A stretch of 64,000 nt of DNA from Candidatus Moraniibacteriota bacterium. Its GTDB lineage: Bacteria > Patescibacteriota > Minisyncoccia > Moranbacterales > UBA1568. Below, one piece after another: positions 15,648 through 62,290 of the stretch (positions are counted from its first letter, which is position 1; each line of letters opens with the position of its first letter). Under the pieces are notes generated by a model that saw nothing but the letters and a program-made list of their open reading frames with translations, ran no database searches and had not been told where the DNA came from. The stretch is from assembly GCA_028688415.1 (NCBI GenBank), contig JAQTYF010000001.1:577895-641894 (forward strand). The letters run 5' to 3'. A program made the translations under genes and the position numbers.

Positions 15648-18122
15648 ATGCTCAACAAAAAACAACAAGAAAAGGTTCAAGGAGTTCCCGATTTGAAAAA
15701 AATTATCACTGAAATTCCTGTTACCAAAGGACGCGGCACAGAGCCTTTTGTAAAAGTCTTCAACTATAGTGATCAAAACATCGCCAAAAGTTCTCTCGGG
15801 TCTCTTGTGGGTGTTTTTGAAATTTCCGATAAAGATGAAAATTCTGTCTTCATTGTCAATTTCCTTACTTCTGTAGCAAAAAAAGAATATTTCAGCAATC
15901 TCCGTCGTGGATCTATCGAAAGTTTCGAAGCATCTCTCCATAAAATCAATCTTGCACTAGCAGAACTCGTCAAAGACGGTCATATCGCATGGCTTGGTAA
16001 GTTTCATGGTGCTATCGGCGTACTCGAAAAAAATAATTTGCATTTTTCCGTTACTGGACAGGCACAGATACTCCTCTTACGGAACGGTAACCTTTCAGAA
16101 ATAAGTGATGGAATAACTTCTCCAGAGTCTAACACTCATCCTCTTAAAACGTTTATTGAAATATCGAGCGGACGACTCGTTCCCCAAGATAAAATCATAC
16201 TCACGTCTCCCGAACTTTTTGAACTTCTCTCTACCGAAGAGCTTGAGAAAAATGCTCTCCGTATGGACAACGAGCAGTTTTCTCAGTTTTTACGAACGGT
16301 ACTCGTAAATAAACTCGATATGGGAGGATCTCTTATCGTCGATTTTGAAGAAACTGAACAAATACAAGAAGTAAAGAAAGAGGTAAAAAAGGTTATTAAA
16401 ACGTCACAGAATTTTTTCAGTCAAGAGCCATTTGAAACTGCTCAAAAAGAAAAGAATGCTATCATCGTAAACGGCGTACTCAATAATCATGAAGTTTCTG
16501 ATGCCGAAAAAGAATATACCGATCCTCGTACTCGACATATTTATGTCCATGGCGACACTGAACAGATAGATGAAAGTCATCCATTTCAAGAAAATATGCA
16601 GTCCTTTTTGCAAGACATCGCTCATTCGTTGGAAGGCATACTTATTGCTCAAAAAAAATTACTCCGTAAATTTGGAAAGAGAATAACCCTTTCTTTTGTC
16701 TTCCTGACGGAAAGAACCCTTACAGCATTCTCTACTTTTTTCTCTCTCATTCATAAACAATGGATCAAAGGAAGCGCCGTTCTCGTATCCAAAATACGGT
16801 CTGTCCAAATCATATCACCTATCAAAAAGAAGATTCAGAAAACCTCTCCTATACATATAGAGTACAAACAATCCTTCCCAAGTGATATCAAAATCGTGCC
16901 AACACAAAAAATTTCCCCTGAAAATGAAGAGCCTTCCTCGGATCTTCCTCCGTTTATAAAGGAAAAATTGGTTGCTTTTTATAAGAAAAAAGAACTGTCT
17001 CATCCAGAACATCTCTTTTGGGAACGCTTTATTACTCTGTTTTCACCTCTTTTTTCTTTCTTTATATCATCGTTTACAAAAGTATCCCGAGCATTATTCA
17101 AATTTTTTGTCTTTATCATAGCATTCGCTAAACCAAAGATTCAGCGTCTTTTTGCCCTCTCATTTCTTTTTCTCAGAACGAAATTAAATCAGTATGAAAA
17201 AAAACAGATCATCCTTGCATCTGGTATTGTTGTCACCCTCATTCTGGGAAGTGTTTTTCTAGTGAAATTTTTCAATAAACAAGAAGCTTCCCCAGTGGTT
17301 GAGGTGCCAATTGAAAATGCTCTTCCCTTTTCCTCTTCTCTCGAAACAGAGAAAAATATCCACTTGGTGCAAGACATGCAATCCATCATGACCACGGAAG
17401 ACACCATTATTACTTCAGTACTACTCGATGATGAAATATACCTCATCACTCCCACTGCTGTTCTTAGTGTGAACGAAAAGAAAAGTTTTCTCTTACCAGA
17501 AAAAAGTGGTTCTGTGACACTCGCTACTCCGATGAATGACTTGCGCCTTATTTTCATCTCTACAGATACCAACGAGCTTTTCTCTTTTGCTCCAAGCAAT
17601 GGAAAATTCACAAAAAATACCCTCAATCTCTTGGACGGAACTATCATACAGTCTATCGGCACTTATCTGACATATCTTTATGTATTGGATGCCAATACCA
17701 ATCACATCTATCGTTTTCCACGTGCAGAAGGTGGTTTTGGAACAGGCTCTCTCTGGACCAAATCCCCCCTCGCTCTTGGAAACTCTCCTCAAATAGCAGT
17801 AAGCGAGACAATTTTTGTTGCTCCAGATACAACTCACATTTCAGCTTTTTTCCGTGGTATATCTACCAAGGATTTTGAATCGCCTCTCGCACCCCTTTCT
17901 CTTTCTTCTCTTCTCGCTTCACCTGATCTCGAGAATATCTATGCAATCGATACTAACGAGAAACGCATACTGATATGGAATCAGGAAGGAATGCTCATTG
18001 CTCAGTATTTCTCCGAACAATTTTCTACTCTCAAAAGTATTTCGGTTGATGAAAAAAAGAATACGGTGTTTATCACAACCGAGAAGGAACTTCTGTCATT
18101 CACCCTTGATTCAAAAAAATAA
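15648..18122 (+). CDS. Large membrane protein: PP2C/SpoIIE-like (apparently non-catalytic) N-terminal domain, two TM segments, extracytoplasmic repeat-rich C-terminal half
   Basis: Residues 1-230 show a PPM-fold-like alternation (LGSLVGVFEISD...ILLLRNGN...IILTSPELFELL) without the DGHGG metal motif. TMs FKFFVFIIAFA and IILASGIVVTLILGSVFLV. C-terminal YVLD/IYAID-type repeats. Confidence 0.55.
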   Translation: MLNKKQQEKVQGVPDLKKIITEIPVTKGRGTEPFVKVFNYSDQNIAKSSLGSLVGVFEISDKDENSVFIVNFLTSVAKKEYFSNLRRGSIESFEASLHKINLALAELVKDGHIAWLGKFHGAIGVLEKNNLHFSVTGQAQILLLRNGNLSEISDGITSPESNTHPLKTFIEISSGRLVPQDKIILTSPELFELLSTEELEKNALRMDNEQFSQFLRTVLVNKLDMGGSLIVDFEETEQIQEVKKEVKKVIKTSQNFFSQEPFETAQKEKNAIIVNGVLNNHEVSDAEKEYTDPRTRHIYVHGDTEQIDESHPFQENMQSFLQDIAHSLEGILIAQKKLLRKFGKRITLSFVFLTERTLTAFSTFFSLIHKQWIKGSAVLVSKIRSVQIISPIKKKIQKTSPIHIEYKQSFPSDIKIVPTQKISPENEEPSSDLPPFIKEKLVAFYKKKELSHPEHLFWERFITLFSPLFSFFISSFTKVSRALFKFFVFIIAFAKPKIQRLFALSFLFLRTKLNQYEKKQIILASGIVVTLILGSVFLVKFFNKQEASPVVEVPIENALPFSSSLETEKNIHLVQDMQSIMTTEDTIITSVLLDDEIYLITPTAVLSVNEKKSFLLPEKSGSVTLATPMNDLRLIFISTDTNELFSFAPSNGKFTKNTLNLLDGTIIQSIGTYLTYLYVLDANTNHIYRFPRAEGGFGTGSLWTKSPLALGNSPQIAVSETIFVAPDTTHISAFFRGISTKDFESPLAPLSLSSLLASPDLENIYAIDTNEKRILIWNQEGMLIAQYFSEQFSTLKSISVDEKKNTVFITTEKELLSFTLDSKK

Positions 18123-18134
18123 ATCCTGATTCCT

Positions 18135-18173
18135 AAAAAAGAGTAACAGTGATCCCGTTACTCTTTTTTGTTT
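18135..18173. terminator. Bidirectional terminator between convergent genes
   Basis: aaaaaagagtaacagtgatcccgttactcttttttg: stem gagtaac/gttactc. Confidence 0.65.
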
Positions 18174-18184
18174 CCTGATATTTT

Positions 18185-20677
18185 TTAGAGAGGTTTTTCT
18201 GCAAGCCTCATACGATTCATAATTTCACGATTGACAATAGTCGCATCACGACCATACCGGAGACGCGAGAGTTCTTTGAGAGCATTCGCTATCTCTTGAC
18301 TCCCATTCGTTGGAGCGTATGTTTTCATATTGAATGGCTTGGTAAGCTCATTGTTCATAAGGAGTCTCGCAAAACAATTCCGATTGTCGACATTCATCAG
18401 ATCGCGGGCTGAAAATACAGGAAGAAATTGCTTCTCAAGAAATTCAGCGTCTTCTGATCCGATACGGAACGAAACAAGCGATCCGACATTCCCAAACACT
18501 GCCTTGGAAATTTCTTCTTTGAGCTGAGCAATAAACTGATGCGCCATTGTGAGCACCAATCGATATTTACGAGCCTCTGAGAGGATTTGAGCAATAGAAT
18601 TTGTGGTTACATTCTGGAACTCATCCATATAGAGATAGAAGTCGGTCCGCTCCTCTTCTGGTGTGTCTACACGTGACAGCGCTGCCATCAAGATCTTTCC
18701 GACAATGACCATGCCGAGCAGTTTCGCATTGATTTCACCGATTTTTCCTTTGGAAAGATTGACGAGAAGAATCTTCTTTCCGTCCATAATTTCACGGAAA
18801 TTGAGCGTGCTTTTCTGCTGTCCAATGATTGGGCGCATCATATCATTGGAAATGAACGTTGTAAGCTTGGAAGTAATATACGGCACCATGTTGGCAAGCG
18901 CCGCTTCTCCACCTGCCTTCTCTGCTTCTTTGGTCCAAAAATCGTATGCGATAGGGTTATTACACTTGGAAAGTTTGTACTTGCGAAAATCTTCATCTGC
19001 TAATACTTTGGAAATTTCCATGAGCGTTGATCCGCTCTCAGGATCCTCCATGATAAGCAACATTGCATTACGCATATATTGTTCAAACATTGGTCCACCA
19101 GTGGCTTTCAGATCATAGAGTTGATCAAATATACCAATCATTTCATTGATAACGAACGTTTTTTGCTCTGGATGTTGTGCATCGTACTCGAGCATATTGA
19201 GCCCAATAGGACGTTCGGTATCCGAAGGATCAAAGAGAATGACGTCTTCTGCTCGTTCTTTGGGAATAGCGGTCAAAATATCTTCAATAGCATCTCCGTG
19301 AGGATCAATAAAACAAAAACCATGTCCCGCAAGAGCGTCTTTCTTGGCCATTTCCTGAAGATACACCGACTTACCAACACCCGTCTGTCCAATAACATAC
19401 ATATGACGTCGACGATCATTTTCAGTAATACGAATATCTGTCTTCGTACCGCGATAATCATTGTATCCGAGAAGCAGTCCTTCTTCTGGAATGTTCACTG
19501 GTGGAGGAGCAGCTCCTGCTTTGAGCCACTTGATTTTTGGTGTAGCCGTCGTCGAAATCGGGAAATGGAAAATACTCGCCAATTCTTCGACCGAAAGGAT
19601 CATCTGCTGTTCATCATTAAAGTTACGGAAAATAAAATCATACACTGCTTGTTTTTCACTGATGCGTTTTTTGATACGAAACGTATTTACTTCTGGATTC
19701 TCGAATTGACCAAAAGCATTTTCCAAATGACCCAGGATTTCTTCCGCACGCTCTTGAGTCCCTGCTGATGCAATCAGTCGTATATTGGCACGAAAAGCTC
19801 CTTTATTCGTTTTTTCATCGATAGATTTTACCAATTCTTGTTCTTCGGGAGTAAGGTTGACTTGTTTTTTATCATCTAGAATTGAATTCTTCTCTTTAGA
19901 ACTTGTCAGTGTCTTCATCATTTCTTTTCCAAACGAAGCAGAGGCCTCACGAAGCATTGATTGATGTTTAGCATCCTTGAGACGCTTCCCTTCTTGCATC
20001 CTCTGGGCAATCTTTTTCCCTTCACTACGCCACGCAGTATTCGTACGAGTGAGGAGTATCTGAAGCGAGATGCCTTCTTCGATAGAATTCAACTTACTTA
20101 AAGCATTGGAAATAACATTGAGTGGATCAACATCGAGTCCACGATAGGTACGAAGAGGAAGAGCATGGCTATGAACGAGATCGAGTACAGAAACTGCCGT
20201 ATAGCCACCCGGCGAAAAGATAGTGTATTCCGTCGCTTTTTCAATCACTGCATGAGGGAAAAAACTATGTATTTGTTTCTCTGCACTCTCCCTGAAACGC
20301 TTTGGAACAGAAAGGTAGAAAAATATTTCTTCACTCGAAGAAGGATTGGCAATTTCAAAAATGATTGTTGGAGTATCAAAAAAAAGTCCTTTGAAAAAAC
20401 CTCCCTTGGGCTTCAGAACAGTCAGTGAAGCAAGTAACTGCTCCATAGCAAAAATCTCTTCTTTCCATGCCTCAGCATTCGGAGCCTGTTGCGCTCCCTC
20501 TGGAATTTCTTTACGTGTCACGCGTATCATTTCCAGATCCATATTCATAGACTGATTGATCTGATAACGAAAACGAAAAAAACTTCGAATAACGAGAAAT
20601 GTTCCGCTGATGATAGCGACAGACGCCAAAAGATACACCAACGGTATCAAAAGGATATTCAAATCAAGACCGGTCAT
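18185..20677 (-). CDS. Membrane-anchored type IV secretion ATPase, VirB4/VirD4 (TraG/TraD)-like, FtsK-HerA superfamily
   Basis: N-terminal TM LIPLVYLLASVAIISGTFLVI; Walker A HMYVIGQTGVGKS; IDPHGD; Walker B FYLYMDEFQNV; RKY-type motif EARKYRLVLTMAHQFIAQL as in VirB4 motif C / TraG-D_C. Confidence 0.7.
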   Translation of the reverse strand: MTGLDLNILLIPLVYLLASVAIISGTFLVIRSFFRFRYQINQSMNMDLEMIRVTRKEIPEGAQQAPNAEAWKEEIFAMEQLLASLTVLKPKGGFFKGLFFDTPTIIFEIANPSSSEEIFFYLSVPKRFRESAEKQIHSFFPHAVIEKATEYTIFSPGGYTAVSVLDLVHSHALPLRTYRGLDVDPLNVISNALSKLNSIEEGISLQILLTRTNTAWRSEGKKIAQRMQEGKRLKDAKHQSMLREASASFGKEMMKTLTSSKEKNSILDDKKQVNLTPEEQELVKSIDEKTNKGAFRANIRLIASAGTQERAEEILGHLENAFGQFENPEVNTFRIKKRISEKQAVYDFIFRNFNDEQQMILSVEELASIFHFPISTTATPKIKWLKAGAAPPPVNIPEEGLLLGYNDYRGTKTDIRITENDRRRHMYVIGQTGVGKSVYLQEMAKKDALAGHGFCFIDPHGDAIEDILTAIPKERAEDVILFDPSDTERPIGLNMLEYDAQHPEQKTFVINEMIGIFDQLYDLKATGGPMFEQYMRNAMLLIMEDPESGSTLMEISKVLADEDFRKYKLSKCNNPIAYDFWTKEAEKAGGEAALANMVPYITSKLTTFISNDMMRPIIGQQKSTLNFREIMDGKKILLVNLSKGKIGEINAKLLGMVIVGKILMAALSRVDTPEEERTDFYLYMDEFQNVTTNSIAQILSEARKYRLVLTMAHQFIAQLKEEISKAVFGNVGSLVSFRIGSEDAEFLEKQFLPVFSARDLMNVDNRNCFARLLMNNELTKPFNMKTYAPTNGSQEIANALKELSRLRYGRDATIVNREIMNRMRLAEKPL

Positions 20678-20724
20678 TTTTTGTATGTGTTATATATTTT
20701 TTTGATATTTGCTGGGATAGATTC

Positions 20725-21150
20725 TCAGTCTTTCTTGATCAGACCTTTGGCGAGCAGTCCTTCATACAGATTATCTACGAGTTCATCATGCATCTTATCA
20801 AGTGCATAATAATCTCCGAGAGAACGGGCAACTTTCACCGCATAGACAACTCCTCTTGTCTCAGCGAGCTCAATAAGTTTCTGTACTTTACTCTCCTCAT
20901 CTATCGTCGCACTGATACTCTTTGCATCCAATTGATGATCCGTGTTGTCAGACGGTACTGATGATTGTGATTCGGGTGCCACCTGAGCGAGAATTTCATC
21001 GTATTTTCTTTCTTTCTGTTCACTCGAACCTTCAATGTGTGTATCGATCTGTTCCGATGGAACTGTCAATACATTCTCTGCTGATGTTTCTGAGGTACGT
21101 TCTGGCGTAATAGACATATTCTCCGTTCCAATCGTTTTTTCGTCGGCCAT
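20725..21150 (-). CDS. Hypothetical acidic protein
   Basis: Start taken at MADEKTIG. The longer track ORF reads through the upstream 21-bp repeats, giving an implausible YYLSSII-repeat N-terminus. Confidence 0.45.
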   Translation of the reverse strand: MADEKTIGTENMSITPERTSETSAENVLTVPSEQIDTHIEGSSEQKERKYDEILAQVAPESQSSVPSDNTDHQLDAKSISATIDEESKVQKLIELAETRGVVYAVKVARSLGDYYALDKMHDELVDNLYEGLLAKGLIKKD

Positions 21151-21172
21151 AATTATTGAAGATAAATAATAA

Positions 21173-21223
21173 AAGATAATTGATGATAGATAAGTAACTA
21201 AGAAGATAATTGATGATAGATAA
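21173..21223. repeat. Two 21-bp direct repeats aagataattgatgatagataa (21173..21193, 21203..21223), candidate regulator-binding site
   Basis: Exact copies 30 bp centre to centre, between the 101-aa and 141-aa genes inside the minus-strand operon. Confidence 0.5.
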
Positions 21224-21298
21224 TAGATACTCGATAAAAAAACATTCAACACCCCATCATTTATCACTCATCATGTATCCTGCATCTTCGGTATCTCT

Positions 21299-21604
21299 CT
21301 AGACTGCTCCTTCTGTGAGTTCTTCTTTGAATTTGTCGACAACACCACGTACAAATATATTGTACCCTGGAATCTTGTTTTCGAAAAACGATTCAAGTTC
21401 TTCTTGCTTCGCCTCTCTGTTAAGCAGAGATTCATACTCTGCGACATTTTCATCGCCCAACTTCTCCATCGTTTCAATAAAAATACGCTTCACCAAAGCT
21501 TCTCCTATCTTTGCGAGCAGTTCTTCTTTCTTGTCTTCTGGGACATTTTCCAAATGAAACGCCTCGATGAGTTCTGTCTTCAATGCTTCCTGGTCAAGTG
21601 CCAT
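21299..21604 (-). CDS. Hypothetical small acidic protein
   Basis: 101-aa ORF between the LysM-like protein and the 141-aa gene. Confidence 0.45.
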   Translation of the reverse strand: MALDQEALKTELIEAFHLENVPEDKKEELLAKIGEALVKRIFIETMEKLGDENVAEYESLLNREAKQEELESFFENKIPGYNIFVRGVVDKFKEELTEGAV

Positions 21605-21647
21605 AGATGTATGTAATAAATTGTATTAGTTCAAAAAAAATGAAAAA

Positions 21648-24614
21648 TTATTGAGTGGTCGTATAGAGACCGAGGCGTTGTCCTGGAGTAACCAGCGTCG
21701 ATATCTTCTTGAGATAATCCATGACCGTGACGTTCGGGTGTTCACGCAAAAATGCTATCCTATCGAAAGCAATCTTGTTATCCTCTACACCCTGAAAAAA
21801 TTGCGTAAAATTTTTGATTTGTTCGTGATTCAAACCTGTTTTGTATCCCGTAAAAGATCCTGCTTTGTAGAGTTTTGCATCTTTGAATATATCCATCAGC
21901 TTGATAGAACTCATTTCTTTTTTATCCACAATCCAGTCTTGGCCCAAAGCAGGGTTTTCCATTCGAAATATCTGCATATACCAATCATTCACACGAGGGA
22001 TGAGTTCTGCTGTAAATACTGGTTCACGCGAAACAGATGGTGATTCTACAGGAACAACATTGCTCACAGGAGACTCGGTGACCCGTTCCAATGGAGGAGT
22101 ATTTTCTCCAACAGATTGTGTGGCAATCTTTCCACTCAGAATTTCATCCACTTTGGCATTGGTCAGTGTCGTACCAGGATGCGAGGCGACATAGTCTGCT
22201 ATTTTTGCATCATTGGCAGTGATGGAAACTATCTGATCAGGAGAAAGAGACTGAGCTTGAGAAAGAGCATTCTCAACAAATGCTTTATCAATACCATGAT
22301 CAGAAAACTTAATTGTTTCGCCAGCCTTCAATTGTACGTCACCGTATTTATCTTTCAGCGCATCGATAAAATGAGTTTTTTCTGCCCCTTCGAGTTTCAG
22401 CGTGTCAGCTACCCCTCCTGCTATTTTCCACACTGAGTCACCTGGCTTCACGACATAATCCTGATTGAATACACCTGTGAGAGGGTCTGTATCTGGTTGA
22501 GGAACCTGAGGTGCTTCAATGGGCGCTTCTGATGGTACAGGAACAGACGGAATCGCTAGCGGTGACACTTCTCCAGGAGTCGGAATCTGTGCGGATGCCT
22601 GAGGAGTATTTCCTATTTGATCTTTCACCCAGTCCACTGCCTGATTGCCACCCAGATGATCCATAGCGACCTGAGTCAGCCAGCCAGATCCGACAAGTCC
22701 ACCGACACCCAGGGCCGATACCTTACGCCATGTCTTCGCTCGTTTCTCATTTTGCAATTTCGTATTGAGAGCATTGATATCTTGATCAAGGAGGGTATTG
22801 AGCGCATCAAAAGTAACTTCTGGTTTCATGCCAAGACTTTCTGTCTTGAGTCTCTCCATCTCTTGAGCTATTTCCCCTTCTGCTTGATCAACTCTTTTTC
22901 TCTCTCCGAAACTCTCGAGGAGCGCCTCTGTACCAACAGCCATACCCGCTCCACTGGCCACTTTGCGAATAACTGAAGCAAAAGCAAGTGCTCCTGCTGC
23001 GGTTCCGCTCCCACCAGACAAAGCAATTCCTGCGGTAATGCCCAAGAAAGCTGCTGTAATAGCGAGTTTTCTTGTAAGTGGGATGCGATTATAGGCACGG
23101 CCCAAGTTTCCTAACAGAACAGTTACTTTCTCGATACCACTCGCATCTTTCAGATGTTCTGACTTGTATTGTGTTCGTTCATTGATGAGATTGGTGGATT
23201 CATCGAGCTTGTAATAACGCATGATACGCTCTATCTCTTTTGTTCTTTCCTCTGGAGTCAGTTGTTCTTCATCGATTCTCTTTTGAAGCAGTGCCACTTC
23301 TGCATTCTGAAGATTCTTCACCGCTGTCTCATAATAAACCTGTGCGTCATCTTTTCTCGCATCTTGCTCAATACCAAACATACTCTTGAATTTCTTCCAA
23401 GCATCCCTATTCTTGACATCCGTCTCCACCCAACGAGCACGCATCTCACCAACCATCGTTCGAAGACTATCTATGTTTGCTTGTTCTGCTTCTCGATCTG
23501 TCTCTAATGTTTTTTCTTCGGATGTTTGTAACTCAATTATCGGTTCATTTTTGATAGTCTCAGAAGCTTTTATCTCTTTTGGTTCTTCTTTTTCATCTGT
23601 TGGCACTGTATCAAAACTTCCTTCTTCCTCTTGATCAAGAAGCTCTCGCAATCTGGCTTCATGTCCTGCTCTCACCGATGCCAATCGATCATTTTCTGCT
23701 TTTTTCTCTGTTTTTTGTCTTTCGAGTTCTTCTTGTTCCGCTTTCTGCCACGCTTCTGCAGATACAGAATCCACAACAGGGATTGAAGATATTTTTTGTC
23801 CCTGTGCCTCTCTGACATAACCCTCTGTAGAAAGTTTTTCCTGTAATGCTTCAATAGAGAGACTGTGCGCTGTCATATCGCCTTCATCCTCTTCTCGTGG
23901 TTCTGAAAGCAATTCCTCAGCATTTGCACCCTGTCGAACATCCATCATCCCTTCTGTAAGTGCGGTTACAAAAATTCTCGACTGAGTTCCATCTGCATTT
24001 GTCTTCACCCACATATCTCCCACTTGTGGCACGAAATCTTCAAGACCACCCTCATTGTCTGAAGGTGGAACTATCGGTGGCTCGTCCGGTGGAATCGATC
24101 CTCTACCTCCCCCATTATTTCTACCTCCACGATCGCTTCCGGTCTGTGTTTGTGGCTTGCTTGATGTTTCTGCGTTCTTTCCGCTAGATTTTTTCTTCTG
24201 TGCAGATTCTTGATCAGAGATATTTTTTCTCTTTTTTTCAAGTGTCCTCACCATTTCTTCTCTTGATATGACTTCGGCATCCTCGACTTTCTCTCCTTGT
24301 TTTGCTTTCAGTTCTAATGCTTGTATTTCCTTTCTTAAGAAAGTAATTCTCTCATTAAGATGCTCTTTCTCTTTTAAATCAAGTGATCTGAGCACTATAT
24401 CATTCCCATTATTCTGAGGCTCAGAAATGCCGATATTGTTTTCGTTGTTTCGCCTGCGTTGATTCACAATCTTTCCTGATGTGGTACCAGCATCAAGACT
24501 AGCTGATACTATCGGTTGACTCCTTTCGTTCGAAATGCCTTTTCGAGCCTCAATAGCTGCTGCATTAGCACCTGCCATTATTATTTTTTTTTGTACACTG
24601 AACCTTTCCGCCAT
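21648..24614 (-). CDS. Large membrane protein with coiled-coil N-terminal region, TM segments, Pro-rich linker and LysM-like domain
   Basis: Coiled-coil/low-complexity N-terminal ~500 aa; TMs LAITAAFLGITAGIALSGG and ALGVGGLVGSGWL; Pro-rich QIPTPGEVSPLAIPSVPVPSEAPIEAPQVPQP; LysM-like YVVKPGDSVWKIAGGVAD...AGETIKF. Confidence 0.55.
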   Translation of the reverse strand: MAERFSVQKKIIMAGANAAAIEARKGISNERSQPIVSASLDAGTTSGKIVNQRRRNNENNIGISEPQNNGNDIVLRSLDLKEKEHLNERITFLRKEIQALELKAKQGEKVEDAEVISREEMVRTLEKKRKNISDQESAQKKKSSGKNAETSSKPQTQTGSDRGGRNNGGGRGSIPPDEPPIVPPSDNEGGLEDFVPQVGDMWVKTNADGTQSRIFVTALTEGMMDVRQGANAEELLSEPREEDEGDMTAHSLSIEALQEKLSTEGYVREAQGQKISSIPVVDSVSAEAWQKAEQEELERQKTEKKAENDRLASVRAGHEARLRELLDQEEEGSFDTVPTDEKEEPKEIKASETIKNEPIIELQTSEEKTLETDREAEQANIDSLRTMVGEMRARWVETDVKNRDAWKKFKSMFGIEQDARKDDAQVYYETAVKNLQNAEVALLQKRIDEEQLTPEERTKEIERIMRYYKLDESTNLINERTQYKSEHLKDASGIEKVTVLLGNLGRAYNRIPLTRKLAITAAFLGITAGIALSGGSGTAAGALAFASVIRKVASGAGMAVGTEALLESFGERKRVDQAEGEIAQEMERLKTESLGMKPEVTFDALNTLLDQDINALNTKLQNEKRAKTWRKVSALGVGGLVGSGWLTQVAMDHLGGNQAVDWVKDQIGNTPQASAQIPTPGEVSPLAIPSVPVPSEAPIEAPQVPQPDTDPLTGVFNQDYVVKPGDSVWKIAGGVADTLKLEGAEKTHFIDALKDKYGDVQLKAGETIKFSDHGIDKAFVENALSQAQSLSPDQIVSITANDAKIADYVASHPGTTLTNAKVDEILSGKIATQSVGENTPPLERVTESPVSNVVPVESPSVSREPVFTAELIPRVNDWYMQIFRMENPALGQDWIVDKKEMSSIKLMDIFKDAKLYKAGSFTGYKTGLNHEQIKNFTQFFQGVEDNKIAFDRIAFLREHPNVTVMDYLKKISTLVTPGQRLGLYTTTQ

Positions 24615-24643
24615 AATCGTACTATATATAATTAAAGACTTTT

Positions 24644-26188
24644 TTATTGTATACGATCAGTAAAATACTTCTCGATAAACAGATGAGCAAACAATTGTTT
24701 CTCAGAGGCGTCCATCGGTAATTGGTCGAGGCGGATCATAATACTTAAAGAGAGTGCTTGTATAATATCGTTTTTGTTTTCTTCTATAAATTCGACGAGA
24801 TTTCGACCTTCTAACAAAGTATTCATTTCTTGCAGACCAGCCGCAAGAGTACTTTTGAGACGGTCTTCTTCGAATGCGATTTCTAGAGTATTCTTTCCAA
24901 GTTTTTGAAAGATTTTTTCATACACTTCGCCAGCATTTTCTGTTTTCGTCTTTTCTGGTGTTTTTGTGGTATCTACCACTGGTTCTGTAGATAGAGGCGA
25001 GACTTTTTTTGCTCGGGGCATTATTAATTTCCACTGAAACTCGTCATCCAGAAATTGCAAAAATTTCTTTACATATTTCGGCGTCACTTTCAAACCTTTC
25101 TTCTCGCCATAATGATACTTTATTTCCGTACCAGATTCAGAAATCTCTTCAATAACAAGTTCTTCTCCCTCTTTGTCTTTTCCAAACGGTCTCCGCTTGC
25201 TCCGTAAGGCTTCTACAAGCACAGCAAACAACTCTTCACCAGAATATTCTTTCTTTTTTTCTGATGCCACTTTCTTTCCTTCTCGTATAACAAATTTCGC
25301 TTCATTAACATCGGAAAGAGCTCGTTTGAGATCATCAATATTTCTTTTTTCAAAAGCGTCCTTGGCAGCACTCCGTAATGAGTAAAGATAAGAAGAAAAC
25401 TTACTAAAATTCCCTTGTTGTTTTCCTTTTTTATCGCCAGGGAGAACTTCGACAAGAATTTTGGCTTCTGATTCTTTTTCTTTGCATTTTTTCCTAATAG
25501 AATCCATCATATCTTGCAGTGGTTTGAGTAATTCTTCTCGTTTTTCTCGAATAACTCTATTCACAGCTTCCACACATTTTAAGAATTCAGTATCTGCTAT
25601 TCTTTTATCTATTCTTGCTTCTCTTTCCGGTATTTGATCCAAGAGAACATCACTCAATGTGTGGGTGATTTGTAATTTCTCTACTAACGCATCAAGATCC
25701 TTCTCATTTGTCACTGTATTAATTTCTGTTTCTCTATAATTAAACTGTATCAACAAATCAGTCCGAACAAGTTCATGCAATTTTTTTTGAACTGCTTGTT
25801 CAATCTCTCTTTTCAACTGACTTATCACAGTAACTTCATCATTAGTGAGGTCTCTCTGCAATGAATCCTTAATTTCGTCTAAAGGAAAAAATCGAATATC
25901 GGTCGGCCCTTCACCCTCCTTGGTCTTCTCGGTGATCACTATACTTTTTCGAAGGCGTACGTACTCTTCTGGCGTTTGAACCTTCTCAATAATAATCATC
26001 CAGTCTTTTTGAATTTCATCAAGAGCTCCTGAAAGATCAGCCGAAATCTCTGATTCTGCATTTTTTTCAGATCGAATATCAGCAGAACTATTTCTCTGTC
26101 CAGTATCAGCTGATGCTCTCAATTCTGCTACGACTTTATCTCCTGCTGTAGCAATTATATTTTCCAAGCTCGAATGAGGTTCTGCCAT
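24644..26188 (-). CDS. Hypothetical acidic protein, paralog of the 26199..27845 product over the C-terminal ~100 aa
   Basis: The C-terminus ...EKIFQKLGKNTLEIAFEEDRLKSTLAAGLQEM... aligns with ...ETLYQSLGHDDKEIFSEEQRLADALRDGLNDI... of the upstream gene. Confidence 0.5.
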   Translation of the reverse strand: MAEPHSSLENIIATAGDKVVAELRASADTGQRNSSADIRSEKNAESEISADLSGALDEIQKDWMIIIEKVQTPEEYVRLRKSIVITEKTKEGEGPTDIRFFPLDEIKDSLQRDLTNDEVTVISQLKREIEQAVQKKLHELVRTDLLIQFNYRETEINTVTNEKDLDALVEKLQITHTLSDVLLDQIPEREARIDKRIADTEFLKCVEAVNRVIREKREELLKPLQDMMDSIRKKCKEKESEAKILVEVLPGDKKGKQQGNFSKFSSYLYSLRSAAKDAFEKRNIDDLKRALSDVNEAKFVIREGKKVASEKKKEYSGEELFAVLVEALRSKRRPFGKDKEGEELVIEEISESGTEIKYHYGEKKGLKVTPKYVKKFLQFLDDEFQWKLIMPRAKKVSPLSTEPVVDTTKTPEKTKTENAGEVYEKIFQKLGKNTLEIAFEEDRLKSTLAAGLQEMNTLLEGRNLVEFIEENKNDIIQALSLSIMIRLDQLPMDASEKQLFAHLFIEKYFTDRIQ

Positions 26189-26198
26189 AATACTTCTT

Positions 26199-27845
26199 TT
26201 ATTTCACGAATTCCTCAACACATTTTCTGACAAATGTATTTGAAAAGAGATTCTTCTCTGATGCGGTCCAGGAAAATTTCTCCAAGCCATCGACAAATTT
26301 TTGAGAGAAAGCTGTAATAATCTTTTCTTTGTGTTCAATAATACTTTCAACTCCGATTTGATCTCTGATATCGTTCAGACCATCCCTGAGAGCGTCTGCT
26401 AATCTCTGTTCTTCAGAAAAGATTTCTTTGTCATCATGACCGAGACTCTGGTAGAGAGTTTCATACGATCGCTCTTCTGATTCTACACTATTATTCTGCA
26501 TTGAGGAAACGATTTGTTCGCTCTCATCCTGAAAAATGATTTGTTTTCCTCGTTTTGGTTTTTTTGTATCAAACTTTTTCTTTCCTTCTTCTGTTTTCTG
26601 TTCGGTATATCCTGATTTTTTTGGTGATATTTGTTTCACCCGACCGCCGATAGATTCATCATCTTCTCCGATGCCTCCATCGTTTTTGTCTTTTTTCCCG
26701 AGGAATATTCTTTTTTCGAATGCGTCCAATTTTTCCCAGACCTCCATAATTTCTGCGGATGATGAATGTTCATCTACTGATTGAGCCCATTCATCTACTT
26801 GTCTGACGAATTCTGGTGGACTCGGAGCATCGTCTGCTATATCGCCACTAAAGGCGATCGTCGATTGTTCACATTTCTTCTTCAGTGCATCTACTTTTCT
26901 GTCGAGAAGAACTTTTTGGTATCCTTTTTCTACCAATTCAATATCTGGTTTATCATCTCCCTGTTCGTTTTCCAACGACTTCAACTCTGATATTTTGAGT
27001 TCCAGGGCATAATCTGGCAAAGAAGCTTCAAGGGCATGGAGCTCAGCAAACAAAAGGAATCCTTGACGTCCCTGTTCTACAATATGATCATCAAGTTTGT
27101 TCCATTCTTCCCCAATTGTTTCAATCTTCTCGTGTATTGATTGAGATTGCTGTAATATTTCTTCTCCCTCTTTTTTCTTTTCTGGATCATCAATCTCTCC
27201 AGAGAGATATGGTCCATATTCTTCATCAACAAATGCATTCCATGATTCTATCATTGTACGACTTGCCTCGAATTCACGAATAAAAGCATTTTCCAGCTTC
27301 ATCATTTCTCCTTCATACAGGGCATAAAATTCTGGATACTGTTCTTTTATTGGATCCGTTTTTTCCATTCCCGCAACCAATACACGGAAGTTTTCCAGGT
27401 GTTTTTTCTCTCCCTGCGCCCTCCTGTTCTTCTCTATCCCGTGAATATCGGTTCTTGTGTAATAAATCTGTGGTTTTCCTCCTTTGGTCTTCGCTATTGT
27501 TCCTACGGCAATACGATCACCGCTTGTGGCATCCTGAAAAACGTCACCTTTCTGTGGAAACGGAAAATCTTCTTCTGGAATGACATCGTTATTTTGTTTT
27601 TTCGGCGGTTCGAGAACAGTCTGGGCGTCTGATTTGTCTCCGGCAACCGCTGTATCTGGAGGAATATTCGACTGAACAGACTCAGACTCCCTTTCCTTAT
27701 CAAGAATGATTGGTGGTTGTACAATCATTTCTTCACGAGGGAGCGACTGAAGAACAAACTGTCCATCTTTGAGCGGAGGGAGTGGTTTCTGTAAAAGGTT
27801 TCCGACCTGTTCAAAAAAAGGAAATTTCATAATTTTTCTTTTCAA
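26199..27845 (-). CDS. Hypothetical acidic protein, first gene of the T4SS-ATPase operon; shares a C-terminal domain with 24644..26188
   Basis: 548-aa soluble, Glu/Asp-rich; short divergent intergenic to the GT-C gene. Confidence 0.5.
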   Translation of the reverse strand: MKRKIMKFPFFEQVGNLLQKPLPPLKDGQFVLQSLPREEMIVQPPIILDKERESESVQSNIPPDTAVAGDKSDAQTVLEPPKKQNNDVIPEEDFPFPQKGDVFQDATSGDRIAVGTIAKTKGGKPQIYYTRTDIHGIEKNRRAQGEKKHLENFRVLVAGMEKTDPIKEQYPEFYALYEGEMMKLENAFIREFEASRTMIESWNAFVDEEYGPYLSGEIDDPEKKKEGEEILQQSQSIHEKIETIGEEWNKLDDHIVEQGRQGFLLFAELHALEASLPDYALELKISELKSLENEQGDDKPDIELVEKGYQKVLLDRKVDALKKKCEQSTIAFSGDIADDAPSPPEFVRQVDEWAQSVDEHSSSAEIMEVWEKLDAFEKRIFLGKKDKNDGGIGEDDESIGGRVKQISPKKSGYTEQKTEEGKKKFDTKKPKRGKQIIFQDESEQIVSSMQNNSVESEERSYETLYQSLGHDDKEIFSEEQRLADALRDGLNDIRDQIGVESIIEHKEKIITAFSQKFVDGLEKFSWTASEKNLFSNTFVRKCVEEFVK

Positions 27846-27888
27846 TGTATCTTTGTTATAATTCTATCATACAAAACAAAAAAAATAT

Positions 27889-29508
27889 ATGTCTCTCTTT
27901 CGTAAATATTCATCTCATCAGATTGCAACAGGATTTCTTCTTTTTGGTATTCTCGTACTCGCATTTTCTGTGAGAATATACCACATCGAAAGTATTCCGG
28001 CCGGTATCTATCCAGACGAAGCTGCGAACGGTGTCGATGCGCTCCATGCGCTCGAGACCGGAGTATATCAACTCTTCTACACAGCCAATTATGGACGGGA
28101 AGGGCTCTTCATCAACCTTCAGGCACTCTCGATATCTCTTTTCGGTAATACCATCCTCGGACTCAAGCTCTGGTCCATCATTTTTGGAACCCTCTCAGTA
28201 CTCGGCATCTACCTTCTTGGCAAAGAACTCTTCCACAGACGAATTGCTGGCTTATTTGCATCCTTCATGCTCGCGACATCCTACTGGGCAATCAATTTCT
28301 CCCGCATCGGATTTCGAGCCATCATGACTACATTCCTTCTCACTTTCTCATTTTATTACTTTTTTCGAGGTCTTCGCACGAGAAAATTCAGAGATTTTTT
28401 CATCTCTGGTATCCTTTTCGGAACTGGAATGCATACGTATATTGCATTCCGTGTTGCCCCTCTCATACTTCTTCTCCTCCTTCCAGCGCTGATACTTTCC
28501 TATGAACGTTTTTTCGCACGTTATTACAAACACGCACTCCTATTCATACTTGGTGCATTCATTTCTGCATTACCAATGTTCTATCATTTTTTTGTTTCTC
28601 ATCCAGAAAATTTCGAATCACGTTCTGATGAAATATCCATCTTTTCTCCGAAAATCAATCATGGCAGTATTTCACAAACACTCGCTCGTACATTCTCCCT
28701 TTCTCTCATAAAATACAATTTCTTTGGTGATCAGAATTGGCGTCACAACTATCCACCCTATCCGATACTCAGTCCTTTCGTTGGAACATTTTTCCTTGCC
28801 GGATTCCTTTTTGTTCTCTGGCAAACAGGAGCACTTCTCATACGTCGTATTCGTTATCATAATCGAGATACCAGGCTCGTTCTATATTTCTTTCTGCTTG
28901 GATCTTTTTTTACGATGCTTCTTCCGGAATTCCTCTCTGGAGAAGGGCTTCCTCACGCTCTCCGTTCGATCGGAACACAGATGCCAGTATTTCTCATCGC
29001 TACTCTCCCAGCGCTCTGGATATTTCATCAAGCTCTGCGTTCTCGAACAGGTTCGCGTATTGCACTGCTCTTCGTTCTGTTTATCGCTTTGAGTGGAAGT
29101 ATGGCATTTGATCTGACAAAATACTTTGTTTTCTTTGCAAAAAGTCCAAATGCTGGAGGATCATTCAACGAAAACTATACCAATATGGGACGATACCTCC
29201 TCACACTTTCTCCTGAAACAAAAAAATACGTACTCTTTTCTGATGAAGGAAACAATGACCGCTTCAGACTCCCTGTCTTTGCTCATCCTGTTTACTATCT
29301 TACTTATGGACGCGTCGCCAATATGGAAATTATCGGAGAAAACACTCTAATCCAAAGTCCAGCTATCTTTCTCATGGTGAATTACAACGAAGAAATAGCG
29401 AAAAAGATATTTGAGCGTGTGCCGAATACAAGGATAGAACGTATCGATATGAACGGACCTGATCGTACTGGTGGAGATTTCAATGTCATTTTTTTATCTG
29501 AAAACTAA
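27889..29508 (+). CDS. GT-C fold glycosyltransferase, PMT/ArnT-like (GT39/GT83)
   Basis: More than 10 TMs; first-loop motif YPDEAANG (DE motif); C-terminal soluble domain. Confidence 0.7.
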   Translation: MSLFRKYSSHQIATGFLLFGILVLAFSVRIYHIESIPAGIYPDEAANGVDALHALETGVYQLFYTANYGREGLFINLQALSISLFGNTILGLKLWSIIFGTLSVLGIYLLGKELFHRRIAGLFASFMLATSYWAINFSRIGFRAIMTTFLLTFSFYYFFRGLRTRKFRDFFISGILFGTGMHTYIAFRVAPLILLLLLPALILSYERFFARYYKHALLFILGAFISALPMFYHFFVSHPENFESRSDEISIFSPKINHGSISQTLARTFSLSLIKYNFFGDQNWRHNYPPYPILSPFVGTFFLAGFLFVLWQTGALLIRRIRYHNRDTRLVLYFFLLGSFFTMLLPEFLSGEGLPHALRSIGTQMPVFLIATLPALWIFHQALRSRTGSRIALLFVLFIALSGSMAFDLTKYFVFFAKSPNAGGSFNENYTNMGRYLLTLSPETKKYVLFSDEGNNDRFRLPVFAHPVYYLTYGRVANMEIIGENTLIQSPAIFLMVNYNEEIAKKIFERVPNTRIERIDMNGPDRTGGDFNVIFLSEN

Positions 29509-29678
29509 TAATCAAGAAAGATTTCCTCATAAGTAATCTTTCTCAGAACCAGTCGTTTGCTCCAGCGAGCAACTCCTTGCGTGAACTTTTTTTGATCTGA
29601 CGAAGCGTCGGAACCATGCTCAAAAAAACTTCAGGCCTCTGAGAAAAATTCTTATGAGAAACTCTCAAAAAAAACAGT

Positions 29679-59902: not shown

Positions 59903-62290
59903 TTACAACTGCCATTTATTCCGTTCTGATTGCTCTGCGATCGGATCATCGCCGTATTGTCTTTCTTCATCTTCTGCAGAAGCAGAGGTGATATCACCTT
60001 TACCAATCAGTACTGTTTTCTTGCCATCCACCATACCAACAACTCCATTGTCTTCGAGAAGACGCATCAGTCTGGCCGCTCTTGGATACCCGACACTAAA
60101 CGCTGTCTGAAAAGAAGTGGTCGAGGCTCGTCCGGACTGAATAGTCATCGCCTTGGCCTGTTCATACAAAGCATCTTCTTTCGCACCTTCATCGATGAGA
60201 CTGAGTGCCTCTGTGATATCGTCCGATTCTCCTTCTATCACTCCTTCAATATCATCACCGATACCGTCCTCCTCCTCATGCGCTTTTTTCTGTGCACAAA
60301 GAAACGACGTTACCGCATTGATTTCTGCTTCAGAGACGAGTACGCCCTGTATACGACGCATTTCTTTGCCATCAGCAGCCGAGTAAAGCATATCGCCATT
60401 GCCGAGCAATTTCTCAGCGCCACTCGTATCGAGGATAGTACGGGAGTCGATCTGTGATTTCAATTGAAAAGAAATACGAGCTGGAATGTTTGCTTTGATA
60501 AGTCCCGTGATGACGGTTGCTTCCGGTCGCTGTGTCGCGAGCACGAGATGAATACCGATAGCACGCGAAAGAGAAGCAAGACGCACAATGAGTGGCTCCA
60601 CTTCTTTCTGATGAGTCACCATGAGATCCGCCATTTCATCGATCATAATCACGATATATGGCATAGCAGGATAGGGTTCTTGTTTCACGGTACCAGCTTC
60701 TGTATTGACGACCGTACGCTTCTCTCCTTTGGCGATCATTTCGTGATACCCTTGGATATCTTGTTTGCCTGCTTCTTCGAGGATTTTGTATCGGTGTTCC
60801 ATCTGACCGACTGCCCAACGAAGTACGTTGACAACTTTTTTGTTCTCAACGATAACATCCGCTTTCAAATGAGGGATGCCTTTGTAGCGTGCAAAAGAAA
60901 CTCTCTTCGGATCAATCAAAATGAGTTGCAACTCTTCAGGCGTATTTTGGTAGAGTAGTGAAAGAAGAAAAGTATTCATACACACACTTTTCCCTGAACC
61001 TGTGCGACCAGCGATAAGAATGTGAGGCATCTTGGCAAGATTGGCCATTACTTTTTTTCCATTCACATCTTGACCAAGAGCGACCATGAGATCGGAAGTA
61101 CGAGACTTGTATGTATCGCTCTCGAGCATTGATCGGAGACGGACAGTAGCTACAGATTCATTCGGCACTTCGATACCGATGAGCGCTTGCCCAGGAATAG
61201 GTGCTTCAATACGAATTGATTTGGCAGAGAGTGCAAGAGCGAGATTATCAGAGAGCGCTGTAATACGAGAGAGCTTGACTCCAGAAGCCGGATGAAACGT
61301 ATACTGAGCGACAGTCGGACCGAGACGGACGTCTCCTGGTTCCACTTCAATACCAAAATGTTTGAGCGTATTCTGAATAATATGTTTTTTTGCCTCTATG
61401 TCACCTCCTGTTGCATGACCCGTTGCCTGTTCCAAGAGACTTACATCCGGAACTTCCCACGGTGTCGTTCCTGAATTTTTCTTTTTCAGACTGAGTTTCT
61501 TGATCAATACGGTCTCTCCTTCTCGAAACTTCAGATTACTAATGTTATTCTCTGCGAGTTTTGCTGTATCTTCTGGAGAAAGAGCTGAGGACACCTCTGA
61601 TGATTCTTCTGTTTCTTCTGGTATTTCTTGTTTTTCTGCCTCTCCCTGTGGTGCGACTGATACCATCTCTGCTACAACAGGATCGACAGAAGGAGATGCT
61701 TCTGGTGATTCTGGTGTTTCTTCTTTGCTCGGAAATAGTCTCCTCTGCAACCGCTCGAATGATGCGATGAGAGAAACATTGAATGAAGCAATCACACCGA
61801 TAATAAAAAATGTGAGAAGAATAATCGTTCCAGCAACCATCCCAGTAAACTTGATGAGAACAGAGGCAAAAGCAAAACCAACATACCCACCACCCTGTCC
61901 ATTACTCGCTACCTTGAGAAGCTCCTTGGTCGTATCTCCACTGTAGAGATGGAACAATCCGAGCACGGAAAAAAACGCGGTAATAAGACCGATAAATTTC
62001 ACCGCATCCGAGAGCGTGGTCTTACGTCCCTTGAGAAACATGAGTCCTGCAATAACAAGAAGGAGAGGGAAGAGCCATTTGCCCCATCCGAGCATCATCC
62101 CGAGACCCGTATTGATCCATACACCTAAGAGTCCGGCTGAACGGAAATAGGCAAGGAGAAAAAGCAGTGAGAGCGCAAACAAAAAAACCGCTGCGATACT
62201 TCGCTTGGCATCACTGTGTAAAATAGTTTCAATGGTGAAATCATCTTCTTCTGATTCTTCTACGACTTTTTTCTTTCGTCCCATAAGCAA
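59903..62290 (-). CDS. ftsK: DNA translocase FtsK/SpoIIIE
   Basis: Four or more N-terminal TMs, acidic linker, motor domain with HILIAGRTGSGKSVCMN Walker A, C-terminal gamma wHTH. Confidence 0.9.
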   Translation of the reverse strand: MLMGRKKKVVEESEEDDFTIETILHSDAKRSIAAVFLFALSLLFLLAYFRSAGLLGVWINTGLGMMLGWGKWLFPLLLVIAGLMFLKGRKTTLSDAVKFIGLITAFFSVLGLFHLYSGDTTKELLKVASNGQGGGYVGFAFASVLIKFTGMVAGTIILLTFFIIGVIASFNVSLIASFERLQRRLFPSKEETPESPEASPSVDPVVAEMVSVAPQGEAEKQEIPEETEESSEVSSALSPEDTAKLAENNISNLKFREGETVLIKKLSLKKKNSGTTPWEVPDVSLLEQATGHATGGDIEAKKHIIQNTLKHFGIEVEPGDVRLGPTVAQYTFHPASGVKLSRITALSDNLALALSAKSIRIEAPIPGQALIGIEVPNESVATVRLRSMLESDTYKSRTSDLMVALGQDVNGKKVMANLAKMPHILIAGRTGSGKSVCMNTFLLSLLYQNTPEELQLILIDPKRVSFARYKGIPHLKADVIVENKKVVNVLRWAVGQMEHRYKILEEAGKQDIQGYHEMIAKGEKRTVVNTEAGTVKQEPYPAMPYIVIMIDEMADLMVTHQKEVEPLIVRLASLSRAIGIHLVLATQRPEATVITGLIKANIPARISFQLKSQIDSRTILDTSGAEKLLGNGDMLYSAADGKEMRRIQGVLVSEAEINAVTSFLCAQKKAHEEEDGIGDDIEGVIEGESDDITEALSLIDEGAKEDALYEQAKAMTIQSGRASTTSFQTAFSVGYPRAARLMRLLEDNGVVGMVDGKKTVLIGKGDITSASAEDEERQYGDDPIAEQSERNKWQL

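Follow-up and report, generated by a model that had tools for sequence, protein, structure and literature searches.

We describe here a cluster of six genes on the minus strand of a 64,000-nucleotide stretch of a Candidatus Moraniibacteriota genome (assembly GCA_028688415.1, contig JAQTYF010000001.1, positions 577,895 to 641,894; the whole stretch is referred to as the window, and coordinates are positions within it), the last of which encodes a membrane-anchored ATPase of the VirB4/VirD4 branch. In order of transcription the cluster encodes a 548-amino-acid (aa) acidic protein (26199..27845, read from a TTG at 27845; the public gene call takes an alternative ATG at 27830, giving 543 aa), a 514-aa hypervariable acidic protein (24644..26188), a 988-aa membrane protein (21648..24614), a 101-aa acidic helical protein of Pfam family DUF5663 (21299..21604), a 141-aa acidic protein (20725..21150), and the 830-aa ATPase (18185..20677). 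A plus-strand gene for an 824-aa membrane protein (15648..18122) is convergent to the ATPase gene. All seven open reading frames (ORFs) lie as drawn in the initial annotation of this DNA, and for the 141-aa gene we regard the ATG at 21150 as a likelier start than the GTG at 21267 because its homologues are 129–192 aa long (median ~145). The ATPase is built from a single transmembrane (TM) helix, a probably cytoplasmic VirB4-type N-terminal domain, and a RecA-like motor resembling those of type IV coupling proteins (T4CPs), and the cluster is not a recognisable, canonical type IV secretion system (T4SS).

The minus-strand genes are closely packed, with intergenic gaps of 10, 29, 43, 148, and 47 nt from the first gene to the ATPase gene, and this compactness is what led to the earlier proposal of a single transcript. 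However, the 148-nt gap 5' of the 141-aa gene (21151..21298, minus strand) contains a promoter-like site together with a 21-nt perfect direct repeat (AAGATAATTGATGATAGATAA, at 21173-21193 and 21203-21223) and three degenerate copies of it (overall span 21149-21237), and there are therefore possibly two transcription units and not one; the repeat region may be an internal promoter or operator for the 141-aa and ATPase genes. Upstream of the first gene, the short interval at 27831..27888 contains one promoter-like match and would be a divergent promoter region shared with a PMT_2 glycosyltransferase gene (27889..29508). The bidirectional terminator proposed between the ATPase and 824-aa genes is supported by a terminator-like hairpin at 18134..18170, serving both strands, with a 14-bp stem lying between an A-run and a T-run. 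It was missed by a consensus terminator scan and picked up by folding (dG -14.1 kcal/mol, z -5.5, none of 200 shuffles as good).

The window is ordinary housekeeping chromosome of a Candidatus Moranbacteria metagenome-assembled genome (MAG), and a protein encoded by a Candidatus Moranbacteria MAG (GCA_028699965.1) has the same sequence as the ATPase (100% identity). The remainder of the window encodes tRNAs, RF1, PrmC, a GT4 (MraY-like) glycosyltransferase, RmuC, the DNA polymerase III delta' subunit, MreB, an EPSP-synthase-family (MurA-like) enzyme, a MurD-like Mur ligase, glycolytic enzymes, RecA, and a complete FtsK with all four domains (59903..62290). There is no compositional island within the 64 kb, and Pfam and NCBIfam searches of the window found no VirB4, relaxase, pilin, or competence gene, in agreement with the initial annotation, which had recognised no canonical T4SS part other than the ATPase, and no relaxase, pilus, or competence gene.

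The motor domain of the ATPase (residues ~405–750; 18428..19465, minus strand) was delimited by its motifs, by Foldseek, and by profile comparison with PDB sequences. It contains a Walker A motif GQTGVGKS (19370-19393), an IDPHGD motif, a Walker B motif DEFQN, and a TraG-D_C region, and these signature motifs, which had been picked out beforehand, are present and invariant across the family alignments (A2, A3, A4). Among Pfam models, TraG-D_C (28.2 bits; cut-off 22) and TrwB_AAD_bind (23.4 bits; cut-off 20.5) both pass, and T4SS-DNA_transf is just under its cut-off (19.7 against 20.1) and is recorded on many homologues; the NCBIfam T4CP models match, all far under their cut-offs. None of the VirB4 models (CagE_TrbE_VirB, AAA_10, TIGR VirB4/TraC) in Pfam and NCBIfam matches at E<=0.1. 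TrwB and DotL give the best matches among PDB sequences, whether the single protein or a 40-member family profile is used (1.6e-7 and 2.6e-6, respectively, with the profile), and TrwK/VirB4 is not among the PDB sequence matches of the profile. The AlphaFold2 (AF2) model, which predicts an all-helical stretch (~504–608) between Walker A and Walker B, superposes on TrwB, and in a Foldseek search TrwB (TM(target) ~0.58) is followed by DotL, Cag-beta, and HerA. We conclude from the sequence comparisons that the ATPase belongs to the VirB4/VirD4 branch, as had been proposed, and that its motor is closest to T4CPs such as TrwB and DotL. A best score as FtsK/SpoIIIE or as a HerA helicase had been named as telling against this assignment, and neither was seen in the hidden Markov model (HMM) searches. 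No Pfam FtsK model matches, the genuine FtsK being encoded elsewhere in the window, and DUF87 (16.6 bits; cut-off 23.2) and HerA_C (14.2 bits; cut-off 22) are under their cut-offs and cover the P-loop only; in the fold search HerA likewise comes after VirB4, TrwB, and DotL.

The N-terminal part of the protein is unusual. A TM helix (residues ~6–33; 20579..20662, minus strand) has a hydropathy peak of 2.36 and is part of a long helix (6–44) in the AF2 model, and because basic residues come after it, the remainder of the protein is probably cytoplasmic. Residues ~45–375 (19553..20545, minus strand) are assigned to DUF8128 (PF26449) in precomputed annotation. An AF2 model of residues 40–405 alone, built on an 85-sequence alignment spanning the candidate phyla radiation (CPR; Patescibacteria), has a pLDDT of 88 and a pTM of 0.86, and all 14 of its PDB matches with E<=0.001 are TrwK/VirB4 chains (best 4.6e-7; the next match 2.9e-2). 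The model of the full-length ATPase (pLDDT 68) aligns with TrwK/VirB4 over ~857 columns (E 7e-14) and with TrwB over ~375 columns (E 7e-11). DUF8128 is thus, by its predicted structure, a VirB4-type N-terminal domain. Because T4CPs do not have this domain and VirB4 sequence models fail on the protein, we place the ATPase in neither family and refer to it as a hybrid or third variant.

Comparison with the two parent families is consistent with this description. The ATPase resembles T4CPs (VirD4/TrwB/TraD/DotL) in being a membrane-anchored P-loop motor with Walker A and B motifs and a TraG-D_C region, and its predicted all-helical stretch may correspond to the all-alpha domain inserted in the T4CP motor, but T4CPs usually have a two-helix N-terminal membrane domain whereas one TM helix is present here, and they do not have the ~330-aa VirB4-type domain that is predicted here between TM helix and motor. 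It also differs from them in being chromosomal, vertically conserved, and nearly universal in CPR, with no relaxase or T4SS genes nearby. It resembles VirB4/TrwK/TraC in the predicted fold of the N-terminal domain, but differs in its failure to match the VirB4 sequence models and in having no VirB3/6/8 neighbours.

We also note that 11 members of the family are 1,100–2,000 aa long (P0178, P0179, P0181, P0182, P0185, P0187, P0189, P0197, P0167, P0191, and P0193) and consist of a full ATPase and a tail of 300–1,200 aa. The tails are Pro/Ala-rich in most cases, contain the motifs PPIGAPPVDL, IHFVDP, and HKVIQPLEPIVP, end in GEV(F/Y)VDxxGNV(I/V)xGE, and have no Pfam domain. A Rosetta-stone use of the tails, those of the 1,400–2,000-aa members, was tried and abandoned, as the strict terminal motif is found in none of 1,443 locus genes and a loosened form only in the 548- and 988-aa proteins of the window. 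These two proteins have in common a short N-terminal motif, EDFxxPxxGDxxxxxxxGxxxIxV (residues ~90–120 and ~190–220, respectively), which is loosely like the terminal motif of the long-tailed ATPases; it is present in this genome only among 81 loci and may be due to chance.

The ATPase family is large and widespread. An exhaustive HMMER scan of 1.84 billion representatives yielded 21,295 clusters (at 50% identity) with E<=1e-3 and 5,641 with E<=1e-30. Identity to the ATPase is 65–86% across 80 Moranbacteria species and 33–53% over the full length across many other representatives, and a profile search recovered DUF8128-bearing proteins labelled Kerfeld-, Doudna-, Uhr-, Parcu-, and Saccharibacteria. 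DUF5663, PF26449, and DUF8128 are not mentioned in the literature searched. The claim that the system is undescribed cannot be sustained for the ATPase, which is already named in public annotation as a 'type IV secretion system DNA-binding domain-containing protein' and whose class was apparently surveyed by Quinonero-Coronel et al. 2025 (PMC12102498). According to the parts of that survey dealing with T4SS repertoires, VirB4, and T4CPs, 5,713 VirD4-type homologues are present in 2,918 of 3,035 Patescibacteria genomes (~96%), 148 of the 5,713 are near virB4, VirB4 is present in fewer genomes (2,417), and there is a separate bona fide VirB4 clade in CPR genomes; these numbers argue that the ATPase is independent of the T4SS. 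The same parts suggest exaptation of the VirD4-type homologues, report that in Southlakia the t4cp homologue is non-essential and the T4SS genes are essential, describe a Southlakia T4SS cluster with no recognisable coupling protein, and list Moranbacteria genomes that are mostly VirB4-positive. The orphan VirD4-like 't4cp' proteins described there are almost certainly the same proteins as ours, and we infer that the ATPase family belongs to this VirD4-type set. The T4SS-repertoire and VirB4 sections of the survey, and its mentions of T4CPs, do not describe the domain architecture, partners, or operon of these homologues.

Relatives of the ATPase are also encoded by phages. When PADLOC and PHROGs were run on all seven proteins only the ATPase gave matches, among them PHROGs family phrog_5156, which aligns with residues 101–825 (E 1.5e-87), and tblastn identified Bacillus phage G gp156 (E 7e-33; residues 103–776) as well as relatives in SP-10, SPO1 (gp27.4), TP-84, and others at ~20–23% identity. 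Those in the large Bacillus and Geobacillus phages SPO1, TP-84, SP-10, and G (loci L102, L103, L104, and L105) are full-length. In SPO1, gp27.4 adjoins gp27.3 ('replication initiation by nicking') and the partition protein gp27.9, and in phage G a gene annotated as 'VirB-like' is directly upstream of gp156. In the product of orf201 of 0305phi8-36, Pathria et al. 2012 (PMC3357382) noted a non-TM N-terminal domain linked to a VirD4-like ATPase. They described orf201 as encoding the coupling ATPase for a 'DNA translocation operon' made up of a relaxase, a translocase, and membrane anchors, which the phage can do without under laboratory conditions. The homology of these phage coupling ATPases (0305phi8-36 orf201, SPO1 gp27.4, phage G gp156) to the ATPase described here includes the N-terminal domain, but the phage genes lie beside a relaxase-like nickase and partition/MreB-like genes that are absent at this locus. 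On viral or mobile-element contigs of varied GC content from IMG/VR (L088–L101) the relatives are mostly motor-only proteins of 390–460 aa, with matches of up to E 1e-185 to the family profile, and one of 1,027 aa (L094) includes the N-terminal domain.

The neighbourhood of the ATPase was compared by tblastn and HMMs in 80 loci from different Moranbacteria species. The ATPase itself is found by tblastn in all 80 at the identity given above, and is among the most conserved genes of the region. The 141-aa protein is directly upstream of it in 77 (33–63% identity), the DUF5663 protein occupies its position in 59 (25–83%), and the 988-aa family is found in 39 by tblastn (23–46%) and at the same position in most loci by HMM; the convergent 824-aa gene is present in 61 (28–50%), and the divergent PMT_2 glycosyltransferase in 58 (41–77%). 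The genes for the 988-like, DUF5663, and 141-aa proteins and the ATPase keep the same order and orientation, as does the convergent 824-aa gene, an arrangement that is not due to chance, and at two minimal loci (L056 and L063) only the 141-aa gene and the ATPase gene are present. The 548- and 514-aa proteins are BLAST-detectable in only 2–5 of the 80 loci, and in most genomes their position is filled by zero to two acidic proteins of 300–1,000 aa. However, unrelated neighbours are similarly syntenic (g201 in 44 loci and RmuC in 41), and adjacency within Moranbacteria is therefore weak evidence of functional linkage.

In eight ATPase loci from other CPR groups the neighbourhood is different. 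HMM, BLAST, and hhalign comparisons found no significant homologue of the 141-aa, DUF5663, 988-aa, or 824-aa protein beside the ATPase at these loci. The annotation of the ATPase neighbours in the CPR loci examined includes no further T4SS Pfam family, and there is no relaxase or T4SS channel gene in either the window or the eight loci. At every CPR locus examined the ATPase is in housekeeping chromosome, its neighbours being genes such as CysS, CorA, DnaX, the dnaK operon, and RF1/PrmC. A divergent CorA gene is typically followed by an acidic protein of 157–219 aa with a conserved C-terminus (five of the eight loci) and then by the ATPase; beyond it are a ~140-aa protein (three of eight), a 200–270-aa protein of the EGVFDGQxMIGPDGKQY family (six of eight), and DnaX (four of eight). 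The order CysS, CorA (divergent), small acidic protein, ATPase, (~140-aa protein), 200–270-aa protein, DnaX is seen in L083, L085, L087, L106, L107, and L108, and the 200–270-aa family, which is unannotated, has the motif EGVFDGQxMIGPDGKQYxVPANYASKSKLVEGD and is highly conserved (41–77% identity). What is constant across classes is the ATPase and a small upstream ORF, present in every locus examined (acidic where its sequence was read). Only the ATPase is common to the sampled CPR classes, its partners are lineage-specific, and the six-gene set is a lineage-specific elaboration. The expectation that the gene order recurs in relatives is thus borne out for the 988-like, DUF5663, 141-aa, and ATPase genes within Moranbacteria, but not for the first two genes or for other CPR lineages, and the proposal of a conserved six-gene system is not upheld.

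The partner proteins provide few further clues to function. The N-terminus of the 141-aa protein is acidic and probably disordered, whereas its C-terminal ~60 aa are helical and conserved; the protein has no relative in Pfam, NCBIfam, or the PDB. The 101-aa protein matches DUF5663 (PF18908) with 25.7 bits against a cut-off of 23.7 (E 1.8e-5; 81 of 84 profile positions), an assignment that is also in the precomputed annotation. The 988-aa protein has a variable, acidic or disordered N-terminal segment of ~380 aa, a region (residues ~380–660) containing a conserved helical segment and Gly-rich hydrophobic segments (22659-23072; residues 515–652), a Pro-rich linker, a weak LysM-like stretch (~22305-22463), and a C-terminal domain with no recognised fold. 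The earlier description of this protein as LysM-like is matched by a sub-threshold signal only (Pfam E 0.027 over 13 residues, 14.8 bits where the cut-off is 20.9; family profile against the LytE LysM, E 0.062). Its C-terminal part is probably outside the membrane and may contact the wall. Family profiles of the 988- and 141-aa proteins found nothing among PDB sequences beyond this LysM hint, and more generally the partners have no PDB sequence relatives and the ATPase neighbours have no Pfam or NCBIfam match to VirB3/VirB6/VirB8-type families.

The first two proteins are, as the initial annotation had it, paralogues alike only at their C-termini, with 38% identity over 85 aa (E 2e-10). We delimit the C-terminal modules as the last 97 aa of the 514-aa protein (24647-24937, minus strand) and the last 93 aa of the 543/548-aa protein (26202-26480, minus strand). 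The ~95-aa module, which ends roughly in GWSxxEKxxFxxxxVxKxIEKFLK, is present in seven positionally equivalent proteins from six genomes (the two in the window and five in L001, L002, L024, L028, and L074), and twelve further variable acidic proteins align over a second C-terminal region; these variable proteins are kept in position but are non-homologous except in their C-terminal modules. A search of a 5.8-billion-protein set with the module gave no match, the source proteins included, and is hence a weak negative. DUF5663 dominates the sub-threshold hmmsearch matches of the module (E 0.1–1.7), yet the hhalign probability is below 1% and we set the link aside. Effectors of the Xanthomonas-type T4SS carry a C-terminal VirD4-interacting domain (XVIPCD). 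By analogy only, the Moranbacteria proteins may be likened to these effectors, as in both cases diverse proteins have a C-terminal module of ~100 aa in common and are encoded together with, or close to, a coupling-type ATPase, but no toxin or enzyme domain is recognisable in the Moranbacteria proteins and we claim no sequence relationship.

The 824-aa protein appears to stand apart from the cluster. Its N-terminal 230 aa (15648-16340) are strongly conserved, with many invariant positions across 53 Moranbacteria species (alignment A1), and this domain has no Pfam, NCBIfam, or PDB sequence match. The protein had been called PP2C-like, but there is no PP2C or SpoIIE match in it, in the 53 family members, or with the family profile against PDB sequences. 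Within residues 1–230 one aspartate (D181) is invariant and another (D65) nearly so, whereas PPM (metal-dependent protein phosphatase) enzymes have several metal-binding aspartates, more than these two. Hydrophobic segments at ~460–540 are followed by a possible C-terminal NHL-like beta-propeller, and the propeller-like exterior proposed earlier is weakly supported by NHL-repeat matches (E ~2e-3). Because the gene is linked to the ATPase only inside Moranbacteria, as are g201 and RmuC, and is absent beside it in the other CPR lineages sampled, local synteny is a more likely explanation of its position than membership of an ATPase module.

Our tentative proposal is that a Patescibacteria-wide 'orphan' ATPase module takes the form of this cluster in Moranbacteria, and that it works as a stand-alone motor for membrane translocation assisted by acidic adaptors; we give this reading a probability of about 0.45. 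As its family membership suggests, the ATPase would form a membrane-docked hexameric ring that threads a polymer at the expense of ATP, with the VirB4-type domain and the TM helix docking the ring on membrane partners. In Moranbacteria the role of docking partner would fall to the 988-aa protein, from which a long acidic arm in the cytoplasm could extend to the motor, and the 141-aa and DUF5663 proteins could act as adaptors or gates. The first-encoded hypervariable acidic proteins are the most plausible clients, and the conserved modules of ~95 aa at their C-termini might serve for their recognition, much as coupling proteins read C-terminal signals. The nature of the substrate can be argued either way: the phage context favours DNA, and the missing nickase together with the modular variable proteins favours protein.

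Several considerations weigh against this proposal. The partners have no detectable homologues outside Moranbacteria, so that what looks like a 'module' may be unrelated genes that happen to lie side by side. The phage relatives lie beside nickase and replication genes, which favours DNA over protein as the substrate, and the cluster encodes no polytopic VirB6-like channel protein, leaving a stand-alone exporter with no obvious pore. Moranbacteria genomes generally also have a true VirB4, and cooperation with that T4SS is possible. The idea of a C-terminal signal rests on few sequences, the module being present in six genomes only, the model of the full-length ATPase is only moderate in quality, and the steps of the mechanism are drawn from sequence and predicted structure.

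That last possibility of cooperation is carried furthest in the view that the ATPase is simply the coupling protein of the canonical Patescibacteria T4SS, whose virB4 cluster lies elsewhere and often near dnaA, such that the acidic neighbours would be adaptors or effectors and substrates would be passed to the VirB4/VirB6 channel. The motor is T4CP-like in sequence and predicted fold, T4CP genes are commonly apart from virB4, and the variable proteins, in having conserved modules at their C-termini, are like T4SS effectors that carry C-terminal signals; the parts of the survey referred to above add that the Southlakia T4SS cluster is missing a recognisable coupling protein and that the Moranbacteria genomes in its table are mostly VirB4-positive. 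We nevertheless consider this view possible but doubtful. Canonical T4CPs have no VirB4-type N-terminal domain, the same source finds T4CP homologues in more genomes (2,918) than VirB4 (2,417) and the Southlakia homologue dispensable where the T4SS genes are not, and the conservation of the ATPase is, in our judgement, high for a coupling protein. A different set of observations points to DNA. Members of the FtsK-HerA superfamily and T4CPs mostly move DNA, the ATPase passes the Pfam TrwB_AAD_bind model, it has full-length phage relatives (phrog_5156, phage G gp156, SPO1 gp27.4), and CPR loci are repeatedly near dnaX, dnaB, RmuC, or a PD-(D/E)XK gene. SPO1 gp27.4 is, moreover, beside a nicking initiator and a partition protein, an arrangement of the kind read as a 'DNA translocation operon' (PMC3357382). 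The ATPase would then be a housekeeping or semi-housekeeping DNA translocase acting in DNA processing, segregation, repair, or cell-to-cell DNA transfer, with acidic partners that mimic DNA or regulate the motor. We find this rather unlikely, however, since no relaxase or nickase is present in the window or the CPR loci examined, a genuine FtsK is already encoded at 59903..62290, closeness to replication genes may merely reflect conserved CPR genome order, and the membrane anchor and possibly wall-binding partner suggest an envelope function.

An origin in conflict or mobility is highly improbable. A remnant of an integrative and conjugative element, conjugative plasmid, or prophage, or a HerA/FtsK-like anti-phage defence system, might be suspected from the PADLOC results, in which the motor matches mad8 in part (E 3.9e-12) and HerA weakly, from the relatives in phages and IMG/VR viral contigs, and from hypervariable neighbours of the type seen at conflict loci. 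This is largely refuted by the housekeeping synteny, which is conserved across 80 Moranbacteria species and shows no sign of an integrase, a flanking tRNA, or a compositional anomaly; the ATPase, furthermore, is among the region's most conserved genes, the partner proteins have no PADLOC or PHROGs match, and the viral-contig relatives mostly consist of the motor alone. Returning to the orphan module, a bolder extension of it would make the DUF8128 ATPases a third deep branch of the VirB4/VirD4 group, ancestral and nearly universal in Patescibacteria, that forms a stand-alone minimal translocon independent of the VirB4 T4SS and in Moranbacteria exports fast-evolving acidic proteins through their C-terminal modules with the help of a wall-tethered membrane partner. 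This is distinctly unlikely, but if true it would give ultra-small bacteria a secretion route not recognised before, and the ATPases might represent an intermediate in evolution between VirB4 and coupling proteins.

Much of bacterial diversity belongs to the Patescibacteria, which depend on host cells and most of whose envelope machinery is without assigned function. The ATPase is a strong candidate for a core, lineage-defining activity in these organisms, as it is highly conserved and not tied to a known T4SS cluster, and if it does belong to the VirD4-type class surveyed in PMC12102498, the class is present in ~96% of the genomes covered there. We believe that the recognition of DUF8128 as a VirB4-type N-terminal domain and the resulting hybrid architecture are new, as are the Moranbacteria partner set with its hypervariable, C-terminally modular proteins and the link to the phage phrog_5156 family. 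The combination of a predicted VirB4-type domain with a coupling-type motor leads to the structural hypothesis of a hexameric membrane-docked translocase and bears on the divergence of VirB4 and VirD4; the Moranbacteria operon offers candidate partners and clients, and the phage relatives tie the family to the proposed 'DNA translocation operons'.

Three other features of the window deserve mention. Divergent from the operon is a tandem pair of polytopic PMT_2 glycosyltransferases (GT-C, ArnT/PMT-like; 27889-31571), whose adjacency is kept in 56–58 of the 80 Moranbacteria loci. A 201-aa protein encoded between the 824-aa gene and RmuC (14776-15381) has no family match and is among the most conserved proteins of the region, with 47–89% identity in 44 of the 80 loci. 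Finally, a 1,929-aa protein (41510-47299) with lactonase/NHL-type beta-propeller repeats and multiple purple-acid-phosphatase-N and FN3 domains may, judging from these domain types, be a giant surface protein.

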